This document shows, piece after piece, positions 1-5,590 of a stretch of 64,000 nt of DNA. Position numbers and translations under genes: made by a program. The DNA comes from an uncultured Verrucomicrobiae bacterium (GTDB taxonomy: Bacteria > Verrucomicrobiota > Verrucomicrobiia > Chthoniobacterales > UBA10450). The notes beneath the pieces were generated by a model. That model ran no database searches. It was given only the letters and a program-made list of their open reading frames with translations, and was not told the DNA's origin. Position 1 is the stretch's first letter. Each line of letters opens with the position of its first letter. The stretch covers positions 640,001-704,000 of the forward strand of contig CAWFGO010000002.1 of assembly GCA_963815455.1 (NCBI GenBank), written 5' to 3'.

Positions 1-584
1 GAGGTGACACCGCGTTTGATTCCGGTGGTGACGATACCGGTTCCAAGCGGTTTGGTCAGAACCAGCAAATCGCCTCGTCGCGCGTTGGCATTGGTCAACA
101 TTTTGCGAAGATCGACAATTCCAGTGACGGCGAGGCCATAGATCGGTTCCGGGTTTCTGATGGAATGTCCGCCGATAATCGCGCAGCCGGCTTCGGCCGC
201 TTTTTTCAAGCCGCCGCGCAAGATCGAGACAATTGTCTTCTGCGAGACCAGATTGGCTGGGAATCCCATAATGTTGAGCGCGGTGACGGGGCGCCCACCC
301 ATTGCGAAAACGTCCGAGAGCGCATTGGCGGCGGCGATCTGTCCGTAAGCAAACGGGTCGTCCACTATCGGCGTAAAAAAATCCACGGTCTGCACGAGTG
401 CGCGGTGTCGATCCAGACGATAAACGCCGGCATCGTCGGCCGTATTCGAATTCACGACGACGTTCCGGTTGGCGGGAAGCGGTAGCTGACGCAAAACTTG
501 CATCAGGGCCGGTTGGCTCAGCTTGGAAGCTCACCCGGCGCAGGATGAAAGCGCAGTGAGTTTACGGATTTGTTCGCGCGACAT
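1..584 (-). CDS. selD: Selenide, water dikinase (selenophosphate synthetase), selenocysteine-containing; 3' end outside window
   Basis: Manual translation: ATG at 584, MSREQIRKLTALSSCAG-UGA(533-531)-ASKLSQPALMQVL...GDLLVLTKPLGTGIVTTGIKRG; SD AAAGGAGGTG at 600-591. Absent from the ORF track because of the in-frame TGA and window truncation. Confidence 0.95.
489..509 (-). promoter_or_regulatory. Candidate bacterial SECIS hairpin of selD
   Basis: CTGATGCAA-GTT-TTGCGTCAG stem-loop; loop G about 33 nt 3' of the UGA. Confidence 0.65.
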
Positions 585-620
585 CGCGTTCACCTCCTTT
601 CAATTGCTCGAGGCGTTTCC

Positions 621-651
621 GCGGGATCCTTCGACTTCGCTCAGGATGACA
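621..651 (-). repeat. TGTC/CGTC-type REP element (single)
   Basis: TGTCATCCTGAGCGAAGTCGAAGGATCCCGC; related copies at 18065 and 26056. Confidence 0.8.
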
Positions 652-661
652 AAGCATTTCG

Positions 662-758
662 CGGAGAGGATAGGAATCGAACCTACCTCGCTCTCGCCGT
701 GGCGGGATCGACAACGGTTTTGAAGACCGCGAGGGCCACCAGGCACCCCTCACTCTCC
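662..758 (-). tRNA. selC: tRNA-Sec (anticodon UCA)
   Basis: Cloverleaf with TGGT D-loop, GCGGT-CTTCAAA-ACCGT anticodon arm, long variable arm, GTAGG-TTCGATT-CCTAT T arm, G discriminator; full CCA not encoded; adjacent to selD. Confidence 0.95.
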
Positions 759-769
759 CGAGAAAAGAA

Positions 770-810
770 AACGTCCAAACCTCAACGTCCAACGCCCAAC
801 GCCCAATCCC
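770..810. repeat. Heptamer tandem repeat (AACGTCC/AACGCCC)
   Basis: About 5-6 degenerate 7-nt units between the SelW-like gene and selC. Confidence 0.75.
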
Positions 811-826
811 AGAGAAAGCAAAACGA

Positions 827-1063
827 TTACTTAAGCTTTTTAATCGCGCTGACGACCTGATCGAAATCGGGCCAGTCGCCGGAATCGAGTTTGGAATGGA
901 GGAGCTTGCCATTGGCGCGGACTTCAAAGGCGCCGCCGCTCGAGGGAATAAGCGTAAGCGATTTGATGCGCTCGCCGAGTTCGAGAATTTGGGTCGCCAA
1001 ACTGACGGCCTTCGGCGTGTAGTTTCAAACCACGCAGTATTCGATCGATACTTCGGTTTTCAC
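827..1063 (-). CDS. SelW/SelT/SelH (Rdx family) selenoprotein, 78 aa, CxxU motif
   Basis: GTG at 1063 after AAAGGAG; MKTEVSIEYCVV-UGA(1027-1025)-NYTPKAVSLATQILELGERIKSLTLIPSSGGAFEVRANGKLLHSKLDSGDWPDFDQVVSAIKKLK*; Rdx hallmarks IEYCxxU, GxFEV, HSK. Confidence 0.93.
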
Positions 1064-1138
1064 ATTGGGCTCCTTTCCGGAGCAAACGGTATCGATGCGA
1101 CCAAAAGCGGTCAAGAAATGTAACTGCGTTTGTCGATC

Positions 1139-1912
1139 CTAGAAGGCAAAGTTAATGCCGCTGCGAAAACCTCCGAAGTTGTTTTGGTTTCCGTCGACGA
1201 CGTTCCAACTGTAATCGGTCATCCAGCTAATGTGTGGAGTGATCCGAACTTCAAGGCCGCCGCCGAATTGACCGACGGCTTCGGTGTGCTCGCCCCGGTG
1301 TTTAGTGTGAAAGACATCCCCCTTTTGATCAGGCACATCCTGCGGCTCGACTTCGAACCCGATTTTGTCCTGTTCGCCGCCACCGAAAATTGCGCCACCG
1401 CCGGCCCAAACATATGGGGCAAACCGGGTACAGGGAACCGGATAACGAAGTGTCAATGTGCCGAGGACTTCGCCGATGGCGCGGTGACGAGTAAATCGCT
1501 CGTGAATGAAAATGTCCTCGCCATCTGATTCGAGGTTGAAGGCTCCTTTTCGCGCACTGAGGACAAATCCCTCGACCCCAATCCCGAAGTAACGATGGAA
1601 AAAGTATTTGATGTCCGCTCCTCCGCCCCAGGCGTGGTCGTCGCCGATGTACTTGTCGAATACTCCGTAAACGGGATGACCCTCGGAGGCACTCTCAACA
1701 ATATCACCGAGGTCGGGATTGGGGGCGTATTCAGTGCCGGTGAAGACGTAGGTGCCCCACAAGCTGACGTTCCATTCGTTATCGGCATACCATTGCGGAC
1801 AGGGCGAAGGCACTATCTGCTTCATTTCCTTTCCCGAATACGAACCGGCCAGAGCGAGACTGGCGGGAAATGAGAAAATTGTCAGAGCCAAAATCAGTCG
1901 TTTCATAATCAA
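1139..1912 (-). CDS. Exported outer-membrane beta-barrel protein
   Basis: Signal peptide, amphipathic strands, C-terminal GINFAF. Confidence 0.7.
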   Translation of the reverse strand: MIMKRLILALTIFSFPASLALAGSYSGKEMKQIVPSPCPQWYADNEWNVSLWGTYVFTGTEYAPNPDLGDIVESASEGHPVYGVFDKYIGDDHAWGGGADIKYFFHRYFGIGVEGFVLSARKGAFNLESDGEDIFIHERFTRHRAIGEVLGTLTLRYPVPCTRFAPYVWAGGGAIFGGGEQDKIGFEVEPQDVPDQKGDVFHTKHRGEHTEAVGQFGGGLEVRITPHISWMTDYSWNVVDGNQNNFGGFRSGINFAF

Positions 1913-1930
1913 AAAGATTGTGTTCGTCGG

Positions 1931-2870
1931 TTAACGGTTGCGGGTGGAAACAGGCGCCTCGACTTCCTGCTCGCCGCCGGGGCCAAGCAGCCACGAGAAA
2001 ACGGCAAAGACTTGCACGCGCGGAGAATCATCCGTGCACCCGATCAAGGTCGAGACATCGAAGCGCGTGTTCTTTGTCGTGCGAAACGCGACCGTGGGTC
2101 CGATGACAAAAGTGTGCATCGGATCTCCGCGGGTGTCTTTAACAGTGAAATTTTTGTACTCCATCTCGACACCGACTTTTAGTTGCTCGCGCGGAAGCGC
2201 CACTGGTGTGACGACGCTTTGAGCGAATCCCCATTCGCGACCGCGGTCACCGGTATTTTCTTTTTCAAAAAATCCGTTCAAGGCCCATTCAAAGCGATGA
2301 CAGAATTCATCGGATAAGAGCAGCCGCAGTTCGTAGGCATCCGGAACCTTGGGCGGACCGCTTTCTTCTTCCTCTTTTTCGCCGGCGGGCGGAGGCGGAC
2401 CTTCCTCGTGCCGAATTGTTCCGACACCGAACTTGTATTCGGCAAAGATGGTCGGATTGAGCGGAATCTTGCCCCAATTAGCGAACGCATAGCGGCCTTC
2501 GAGACTCACCGTGGAAGGGCCACCGCCGCCATTGAATCGCTCGAAGTTCGCCTCGGCCGCAACGCCAAACCGGTAGGGCAAGCCCATTTCGGCTTCCTGA
2601 GTGAAAAGATGATCGGGCGGACCGTGCCGCAACGCGTCGCCTTCGTAAATCTCGCCAAAATAAAAGGTCCATGGCGGCAATACATACGCCGTCGTAAGCG
2701 GGGCAAAGCGGGTGCGCGAAAATCCACCCGGCGCACCGTAAGCACTTCCAATATCGTCCCCCGTTACGACGACATCTTCGACGGCCGTCTGTGCGCGGCA
2801 AAGCGTGCGGGACCACCAGGAGCGAAAGGAAAGCGAAGGCTGCGACTGGTAAAAACCGCGGTCTGGTCAT
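1931..2870 (-). CDS. Exported hypothetical protein, probable beta-barrel (frameshifted)
   Basis: ATG 2870 with GAGGAG SD and signal peptide MTRPRFLPVAAFAFLSLL; continues into ORF 1931..2680 after frameshift(s). Confidence 0.6.
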
Positions 2871-2909
2871 AAAAATCTCCTCGAGCGTTGGCAAACGAAA
2901 CCCGCGAAT

Positions 2910-2927
2910 CATTACAGATGTGTAATG
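2910..2927. promoter_or_regulatory. CusR/HprR-like operator box
   Basis: CATTACA-GATG-TGTAATG inverted repeat, 40 nt upstream of ATG 2870. Confidence 0.75.
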
Positions 2928-3134
2928 TTTGGGCAAGCCCTTTTCACTGGACAATCCCGCCCTATTTTTGAAGCCTTGCGCATAATAGAAATGGGAACGG
3001 CGGCTGCCCGCTTCGACTTCCTCAGCTGCGACAATCCGCCAAGATCGCGAAAGCTGCGGGATTGAAGGGTCAGCCGCCGTTTTTTGGCACCACCCATGAA
3101 GGGCGCCTCTGAAATCATTTCATTTTTAGTCTCC

Positions 3135-5590
3135 TTAAAATTCTACCGAGATGCCCGCATAACCGGTGCGACGCGGCGCAGGCTCGATGCCGTTGCCAAA
3201 GATGCGATTGTAATATTTTAGATCGGCTAGATTAGAGATGCCCCCGATCAAACGGACATTCTTCGTGATGTACCAGAAACCGGAGAGATTGAAGACCTTA
3301 TAAGGCGGGACCTTCGGCGGAATGTTGGTTCGTATTGTCGTCTGACTAAAAGCAGATCGAGCACCGACATTTGTATCCGACCAGAATTGCGAAGAAACAT
3401 ACACTGCCGAGAAAGTCAGATTGAAACACTTTTCCTTTTGGAAGGAGATTCCGCCCTTCCATAAAAACTCCGGCGCGAAGTTCGGCGTGTTGCCGACAAT
3501 CGTTTTGCCATGTGGCGGCGGCAGGAGATTTGCCTGAGGCTGGGGCAGGTCGCTTTCGATAAATTCGGCATCGAGATACTGGGCGTTACTGAAAACGATC
3601 AGCTTAAACGGATGATAATCCGCCAGGGAGACGCCGGGAACAGCCGTGGATTTTGAATCGACAACGCCCTTGCCGGGCTCCGGCAACGGTTCGGGCACGG
3701 GCGGGTGTTGAAAGCGGGACAGAAAATCGTAGGAGATTTCGCCTTCGAAACCGCGGTGACGCGAACTGCCCGAGTTCAGGATGATGAAATCAGTGTTGCT
3801 AATGTTGAAGCTCTCGGTGCGATTATCGAATAACATCCAGAACGCGCCCACATCGTACCAAAAACCCTTAAATGGAGTGCCGTGGACGCCGAGTTCGAAA
3901 TCGAGAGAATGAAATGGATCAGGAATGTCCTCACCGGGCGCGATGGTTCGAGTCGTTCCGGCGATATCGAAGAATCGTGTCGGTCGCCAACCGGTTGTGG
4001 CACTGAAGTAGGTTTCATTCCTGTCCCCGAAATCATTGCCCAAGCCAACTCCCCAGAGCGGAACCCAGTGATCGGCACTGATGTGATCGGGACTGATCAA
4101 GGGGGAGCCGGGAGCAAGCGGAGGACTCAGCCACGGCGCGTGGGCCGAATCGACTTCCACGGTTTCGTGATCCAACCGGAAGGAAGCAACCAGGTGAAAT
4201 TTTCCGAGCCGGACAAGGTCCTCAAAGAAAAGCGCCTGGTAATCGGCAGTGCGATCCTGGTCGAGAGTCGGTCCGATGTCCGTGTCAACCCCAGCGATCC
4301 GCAGGATGGTATTGGCTGAGGATCCGCGGGGCGCGTAGAGAAAACCCGGGCCAAAATTGGCGATGGTCAGACCATTTGAGGTGTTGATGTTCGTCGCTTG
4401 GAGGGTATAACGTTGGAACGGCGCTTCGCCGTGGTAAACGAGTCCGCCAAACGTCAGAGCGTACTGCCCTTAAACATGGTGCCATCGCCCCAGTCTTTGC
4501 GGACGCGAATATCCGCGCCACCGTTATAGAACGTCTCATATCCGAAAGTTGTGCTTGTCGGAAATCCGCCGAGCCTGGTGATGTTCCCGCCGGCGCGGGC
4601 GTCTAGCTCCTGATGGGTAAACCAGCCCTTTGCTTGTAACAGCCAGCCGTCACCAAATGTATGTTCGTGACGTAGCACCGCGGTGTAACGATCCACCCAA
4701 TCCTCGATTGTACGGCGTGAGCGTTTGATTTTGGTCGGACTGAAACCGATAACGACTTGGAAGGCGTCCCGGAGTCGCCGCCTTCAAATCGACTGGCATA
4801 AAAATCAAGCGCCCACAGTTGATTCTCATCCGGCCGGTAACCGAGGTAACCATCCGCCTGCCACAAATCGTACCAGCTATTATCGCGCTGGCCGTCGGAA
4901 TGGACGTAGCCCGAAGCAACCGCAGCTCGACCGGGCCGGAGGCATCCTGGACGGAGCCATAGGTCGAATAGAATCCGTAGGCGCCGCCTAGAGCTTCCAG
5001 ATATGTGCTCCATGGCGTGCCAGGATGCGGGATGTTTCGTTACGAAATTAATTGCCGGGGCCGGCTCAGGACCGTAAAGCAAACTGCTCCCGCCGCGGAT
5101 CACTTGAACTTCGCTGACACTCTGCGGCAGCGGAAGATAGTAAAGCGTCGGGAACCCGATCCAATCGCTCATCAGCGGAACACCGTCCCGCATCACAAGG
5201 GTGTATTCGGATTCCTGCGGATTGCCCAAACCCCGATAACTGAAATTGAATTGCCCCGGCGTGTGCTGTTGCTCGGAAATCAGCAACCCCGGCGCTTTGG
5301 TGAAAAGCTCCTGGAGATTGTTATTTTCGACTGGCGGCTGTTGATCGAGTTTGATGACCGTTGCCTTTTTCGTGACGGTGATCTGCGTACCCGAGACTTC
5401 CGGCATCAGGTGATCGCGCTTTATCTTCCAATTGTCGTACGGTGTCGGGGTAGGCAACGGTTCTCCCGTCACTGTCACTCCTTCGGTTTGCATTGTTTGC
5501 CCGTGAATCAGCTGCTGGTTGCAAAGCAAACAACGAAGCCGGAGCAAGAATCGGAGGAGCGATTCGAAGCGTTAGAAAACCCAGAGACAA
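3135..5590 (-). CDS. TonB-dependent receptor, FecA-like (several frameshifts; start uncertain)
   Basis: Plug motifs (RDGVP, VQVIRGGSSLLYGP), barrel strands, ISNLADLKYY and terminal GISVEF; split over ORFs 4603..5547, 4454..4696, 3135..4175. Confidence 0.88.

Follow-up and report, generated by a model that had tools for sequence, protein, structure and literature searches.

The minus strand at the start of the window (the whole stretch analysed, 64,000 nucleotides, G000:C2:640001-704000, where G000 is the host genome, 90% complete) carries three elements within positions 1-1063: a gene reading YCVV-TGA, a tRNA with the anticodon UCA and a gene reading MSREQIRKLTALSSCAG-TGA-ASK. They lie where an earlier note had placed them as parts of a selenocysteine (Sec) cassette. 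The cluster is bigger than that note had seen and comprises five genes, since selA and selB were found in the same genome directly downstream of selD, just outside the window. The features of the cluster are as follows.

1070-1077, minus strand: strong ribosome-binding site of selW, GAAAGGAG; a similar purine tract is present in nearly all relatives
827-1063, minus strand: selW-like gene (Rdx family), 78 aa, GTG start at 1063, CxxU motif (C10-V-V-U13), stop TAA at 827-829
1025-1027, minus strand: in-frame TGA, predicted Sec13 of the SelW-like protein, at a Cys column
995-1007, minus strand: SECIS-like hairpin of selW, CGUCA-GUU-UGGCG, loop 22 nt after the UGA
764-807, minus strand: spacer with short, dispersed GGCGTTG-type repeats, outside the Sec machinery; 15 genome matches, depth peak with loose ends
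661-758, minus strand: selC, tRNA-Sec(UCA), 7-bp acceptor stem plus one bulged base, 5-bp T stem, G73, CCA not fully encoded
617-652: palindromic (REP-like) element in the selC-selD spacer, dispersed in the genome with 128 blastn hits; metagenome contigs show a depth peak here
591-600, minus strand: strong ribosome-binding site of selD, AAAGGAGGTG
1-584, minus strand: 5' part of selD, selenophosphate synthetase, ATG at 584, 350 aa, U18-x-x-K21; the gene ends at G000:C2:639532, outside the window
531-533, minus strand: in-frame TGA, predicted Sec18 of SelD (CAG-U18-ASK), at a Cys column
486-506, minus strand: SECIS-like hairpin of selD, 9-bp stem, GUU loop 33 nt after the UGA, with covariation
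C2:638186-639547, outside the window: selA, 453 aa, TIGR00474 at 471 bits
C2:636318-638198, outside the window: selB, 626 aa, TIGR00475 at 325 bits, with SelB winged-helix domains

When the TGA codons were read through, both translations scored above the curated cut-offs of the Rdx and SelD profiles. The SelW-like protein gave 57.5 bits with TIGR02174 (SelT/SelW/SelH; cut-off 34.2) and 67.9 bits with PF10262 (cut-off 22.6), and did not reach the cut-off of NF041051, a Campylobacter-specific model (72.6 vs 88). Its U13 aligned to a Cys of solved homologues, in the CTQC motif of 2fa8 and the CEPC motif of 2ljk. SelD gave 365.8 bits with TIGR00476 (cut-off 125) over profile positions 1-309 of 311, and in alignments its U18-A-S-K21 stands against CGCK of 3u0o and CAAK of 2yye. 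The Cys anticipated at the SelD column was found in relatives, codon 18 being TGA in 22 and TGC in 3 of the 25 selD loci (G000 included). Among 102 SelW matches in 151 genomes of the family, 101 have one TGA, the remaining match is a fragment without the N-terminus, and no Cys form was seen; the presence of the same TGA in 101 of 102 matches excludes chance. A thiol/selenol redox role is predicted for the SelW-like protein. SelW-like (Rdx) proteins and Sec-SelD are both catalogued selenoprotein families (Table 1 of PMC13188914), and the proteins described here are like the known ones (PF10262 and TIGR02174; TIGR00476) in their CxxU and UxxK motifs, length and above-cut-off scores, whereas the lineage alone differs.

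The expectation that standard gene callers would truncate or miss both proteins was borne out for SelD, which stands in the public protein collection as a 323-aa product starting after the UGA. For SelW, the sole truncated form looked up had no record, which is compatible with a missed gene and is no proof of one; missed selW genes have already been described (PMC4607533, available part). The annotation is corrected here in both respects, SelD having been recorded without its catalytic residue and selW having apparently been missed.

The absence of selA and selB from the genome had been named beforehand as a result that would speak against recoding. Both genes are present, and G000 thus holds selA, selB, selC and selD, the set by which the bacterial Sec-decoding trait is recognised. 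The selA start lies 16 nt ahead of the selD stop, the last part of selA is overlapped by selB, and the selW-selC and selC-selD spacers measure 68 and 76 nt and both hold dispersed repeats. Judging from the common strand, these short spacers and the overlapping frames, the five genes are probably co-transcribed. A promoter and terminator scan of positions 1-3200 was uninformative: it gave no terminator between the genes and nothing promoter-like.

Several observations were made around the cluster. selB is followed by a four-helix-bundle gene (TIGR02436/TIGR04258; L001:9710-10300, minus strand) and then by a PD-(D/E)XK nuclease and UvrD-type helicase pair (AddAB-like; L001:3494-9678, minus strand). 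Upstream of selW on the same strand are two unannotated barrel-like genes (window 1139-1912 and 1931-2680), with weak, below-cut-off matches to OMP_b-brl and Phenol_MetA_deg; having no in-frame TGA and weak Pfam matches only, they were left out of the cassette. In two assemblies the sel cluster occurs twice (G012:C9 and C10; G109:C3 and C5) with one copy frameshifted, as in a duplicate assembly or a decaying copy.

The selC product scored 58.9 bits with Rfam RF01852 (gathering score 47) and has the UCA anticodon, long variable arm, 4-nt D loop and G73 of a tRNA-Sec. All 27 tRNA-Sec copies compared have seven acceptor pairs with an unpaired base after pair 6 (U; A in L025), a 5-bp T stem and G73. 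The canonical 8/5 (13-bp) bacterial form was therefore rejected in favour of 7+5 pairs, and the same bases could also be read as having pair 7 mismatched and one more base in the linker. A 12-bp (7/5) subtype of bacterial tRNA-Sec is known (Santesmasses et al, 2017, PMC5330540), and in the available part of that paper it shares with the tRNA described here the 7-bp acceptor stem with a bulged base, G73 and the adjacency to selA, selB and selD. The bulge here comes after pair 6, whereas the figure legend of PMC5330540 lists bulges at 3a, 4a, 5a and 7a. By its 7/5 fold the tRNA matches this known subtype, in a lineage, Verrucomicrobia, that the text of PMC5330540, as far as available, does not name. 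Among the 49 tRNAs of G000, selC is the sole one with a UCA anticodon.

A SECIS element is a hairpin shortly 3' of the UGA with a G in its apical loop. Such hairpins follow both TGAs, with loops at +22 (selW) and +33 nt (selD) and an A-GUU-U apex in each, and a generic SECIS-like hairpin was found after just 1.7% of all TGA triplets in the genome. The AGUUU loop is present in 26 of 26 selW segments compared. Across the 22 selD loci with TGA, 96% of the hairpin cells are paired and 12 cells are changed on both sides; no shuffle out of 500 reached this pairing and slid controls gave 18-52%, figures that count as supporting evidence and not as a probability because related genomes are not independent. 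The A-GUU-U apex is lost in all three loci with Cys-SelD. Single-sequence folds of the two regions beat shuffles only modestly (z -2.1 and -1.4), and in the selW region of G000 the minimum free energy fold departs from the family hairpin.

Other meanings of the in-frame TGA codons were considered. A genome-wide change of UGA to Trp, by which both TGAs would be ordinary sense codons, is on record in the phylum for one verrucomicrobial symbiont (PMC13462651, available part). In G000 it is next to impossible and was rejected: UGA works as a stop at the end of 799 of 1916 well-coding frames, the segments after UGA stops are non-coding as they are after TAA and TAG, RF2 is present, the sole UCA tRNA is of the Sec type, and the aligned residue in homologues is Cys and never Trp. 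Nonsense mutations or assembly errors in pseudogenes would be left some room by the public sequencing runs, which contained contigs of relatives only (at most 0.18 of words matched), but this reading was also rejected and is hardly conceivable, as the same TGA is conserved across genera, in 100 other selW matches (51-94% identity) and 21 other selD loci; the frames downstream are intact and the hairpins conserved. These results together supported the Sec-decoding reading, and we hold with high confidence that the window contains the front of a selW-selC-selD-selA-selB cluster, likely one operon, with predicted UGA-to-selenocysteine recoding in the SelW-like protein (U13), in SelD (U18) and in four proteins encoded elsewhere in the genome.

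The distribution of the cluster was monitored in relatives. Among 60 relatives, a true selD was found in 24 of 36 from the same family and in none of the 24 that belong to the order's other families; the gene order selW-selC-selD-selA was seen at all 25 selD loci including G000, one selW being cut by a contig end. In a larger set of 151 family genomes, selA was present in 103 (102 of the 150 relatives) and selW in 100; 96 genomes had both, 11 fragmented assemblies had one only and 44 had neither. Outside the family, selA was found in 15 of 298 genomes of a phylum sample. One of these loci, L202 from another family, has selW-selC-selA-selB with a similar tRNA, and no selW was found within about 1.5 kb at the other 14. 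About two thirds of one Chthoniobacterales family are thereby assigned the Sec trait, compared with 15 of the 298 genomes sampled elsewhere in the phylum. The family is putatively Candidatus Udaeobacter. No relevant paper on Sec use in Chthoniobacterales or Udaeobacter was found in the literature as available (searched without most subscription papers, including PMC5029168 and PMC12013277 with its table of new families). One BSepDB supplement (PMC13326102, about 4.0 million characters), as far as available, gave no match to Chthoniobacter, Spartobacteria or Udaeobacter; the BSepDB web database or supplements of other papers may list these genomes.

In the established pathway selenophosphate is the product of SelD, Ser-tRNA-Sec is turned into Sec-tRNA-Sec by SelA, and Sec is delivered by SelB, which binds the hairpin that lies just downstream of the UGA. 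The production of SelD would need SelD's own product, for the Sec at U18. With the frames of selD and selA overlapping, and those of selA and selB likewise, synthesis of all the machinery would be tied through read-through at U18 to the selenium supply, in a positive loop. The overlap of selD and selA, 4-16 nt in 21 of 25 loci, is absent in 4 of 25 and kept in two of the three Cys-SelD loci, and may therefore lack a regulatory role. Neither SelU nor YqeB was found in G000, which leaves SelD without another known use, and Sec formate dehydrogenase was not found either; as the genome is 90% complete, formate dehydrogenase, SelU or YqeB could be unassembled.

Two PF00384 matches in G000 were considered as Sec FdhA and rejected, as they have no internal stop and resemble, by reading, a YdeP-type protein and NuoG. 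Of the 36 family relatives, 14 gave a match to an FdhA with TGA, all of them selD-positive and four of them with fdhA within about 10 kb of selD, which leaves 11 of 25 Sec-positive genomes (G000 and 10 others) without a match. Bacterial selA-selB-selC(-selD) operons usually adjoin fdhA, and every selenoproteome is held to contain FdhA or Sec-SelD (Zhang et al, 2006, PMC1794560, available part). The cluster described here is like the operons in that part of the paper in the clustering of the four machinery genes, the UxxK of Sec-SelD and the SECIS hairpin just after the UGA, and differs from them in that a selW-like selenoprotein gene leads and FdhA is often not found. One relative (L024 in G008, unpublished, 94% complete) has Cys-SelD and no FdhA match, yet carries selW with TGA, tRNA-Sec, selA and a TGA-containing barrel gene; G008 is a possible exception to the rule as given in the available part of PMC1794560. 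A genome of another family in which no selD was found has a partial FdhA match with TGA (G040:C2:643366-644202), as in a relic or a misbinned piece. The role of bacterial SelW-like proteins could be studied cleanly in this arrangement, which is led by selW and often free of FdhA.

As another reading of the same operon, the SelW-like protein could go beyond the role of a client redox protein and itself take part in selenium handling, as a carrier or reductant that feeds SelD. selW is the first gene of the cluster in all 25 loci and in L202 of another family, has no Cys form in the 151 family genomes, is missing together with selA from 44 of them, and persists both in the 11 of 25 Sec-positive genomes where FdhA was not found and where SelD has Cys; moreover, the in vivo donor for SelD is stated as unresolved in PMC13188914. 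Deletion of the whole operon, however, explains the joint loss equally well, and none of the 14 other selA loci from other families has selW within about 1.5 kb, and we regard a carrier role as the less likely reading. All TGA codons of the genome were scanned for further clients, and four more Sec candidates with hairpins were found.

G000:C5:171431-171850 (L060), minus strand: second SelW/Rdx-like gene, CETU with TGA at C5:171820, PF10262 above cut-off, A-GUU-U hairpin
C3:471956, plus strand: AhpC/TSA peroxiredoxin-like, W-U-P-F-C
C3:493856, minus strand: AhpC/TSA peroxiredoxin-like, W-U-P-F-C
G000:C2:127327-128484 (L059:5328-6485), minus strand: COG4313-like outer-membrane barrel, 385 aa, with signal, Q-G-TGA and a strong SECIS-like hairpin

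The frame of the second Rdx gene continues about 55 codons past the domain. One of the AhpC/TSA proteins has a signal-like N-terminus and the other several hydrophobic segments, and these three candidates belong to catalogued families (PMC13188914 Table 1). About 300 other read-through candidates from the coding-potential scans were set aside by eye, for having no Cys-type motif or the look of a gene junction or frameshift, so that six selenoproteins are a lower bound. The clients of the machinery would then be redox and envelope proteins and not formate dehydrogenase. They would comprise both SelW/Rdx proteins, the pair of peroxiredoxin-like proteins with UxxC, for which export or membrane segments are predicted, and the COG4313-like barrel, in which Sec would be the predicted mature residue 3.

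The barrel gene encodes a signal peptide (predicted by eye), Q-G-TGA-V-C, 345 open codons and a terminal Phe. It gave no Pfam or NCBIfam (June 2026) match at E 0.1 and no match among the 119 prokaryotic selenoprotein families in Table 1 of PMC13188914, and no paper on the family was found in the literature as available (searched without most subscription papers, including the PMC12013277 table of new families). The family has 610 representatives at E 0.001. Homologues are present in 21 of the 151 family genomes, where 25 distinct gene starts have TGA in 22 and Cys in 3. The motif is present in 79 of the best 80 of 203 GTDB loci, with TGA in 29, TGC or TGT in 50 and TGG never. A hairpin with its loop at +23 to +26, a rule set after the TGA forms had been seen, is present in 29 of 29 TGA forms and in 1 of 50 Cys forms; in L064, a recent Cys barrel in the family set, the hairpin is kept. 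Close database homologues mostly begin right after the UGA, so that the gene callers would have stripped the predicted export signal. In 148 distant representatives, QGC is found near the N-terminus in 72, and most of the others start downstream of that position.

The Sec form of the barrel tends to go with the Sec machinery. A TGA barrel is carried by 16 family genomes; selA was found in 15 of these, and the exception is 60% complete and has selW. The two family genomes that have a Cys barrel only gave no match to selA. The GTDB test covered 17 TGA loci (of 29) and 33 Cys loci (of 50), with selA in 12 of the former and 8 of the latter (Fisher p 0.002, overstated by kinship), and the five TGA-barrel genomes without a selA match are assemblies of unstated completeness. 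The sel cluster of G061 has the barrel gene as its immediate neighbour, tail to tail. The closest relatives of the barrel have record titles such as Chthoniobacterales, Spartobacteria and Verrucomicrobiota, and further cases of the Sec form come from other Verrucomicrobiota and from records with the titles Armatimonadota, Thermoanaerobaculia and Gemmatimonadetes.

The AlphaFold model of the barrel (pLDDT 88.8) is a predicted beta-barrel in which an N-terminal segment precedes strand 1. It matched best with 4RL8 (Pput2725; Z 23.2, rmsd 2.8, 255 residues) and also matched FapF (5O65) at E 3e-13, and residues 1-19 have pLDDT below 50, so the Sec residue is not placed. The fold is shared with the COG4313/PF13557 channels 4RL8 and FapF, and the N-terminal segment aligns with the N-terminus that fills the lumen in 4RL8 (PMC4493636, available part). 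Against these channels the barrel has 12-16% identity and no PF13557 match; a precomputed PF13557 match exists in 2 of 63 homologues and the G000 barrel had none at E 0.1. It further differs in a conserved Cys/Sec at the predicted mature residue 3, cysteine not being mentioned in PMC4493636 as far as available. The catalogued barrel selenoproteins (TonB-dependent FCYXU; MtrB/PioB GSU2204) are other families, and the barrel is likely an uncatalogued selenoprotein family. We consider it probable that the operon serves an envelope-redox selenoproteome and not formate dehydrogenase, including uncatalogued COG4313-fold channels in which Sec is the third residue after the signal peptide and would act as a redox- or metal-reactive gate at the N-terminal plug. 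If so, the Sec/Cys pair in a channel points to an unrecognised redox- or metal-dependent step of transport.

A barrel fragment (P0092) reads QGGVCAHL at the Sec column, possibly from a gene call under a UGA=Gly code. In some relatives up to five barrel copies are clustered, and these clusters sit near alaS among genes that, by reading, are Ser/Thr kinase, sigma-factor-like and adenylate-cyclase-like.
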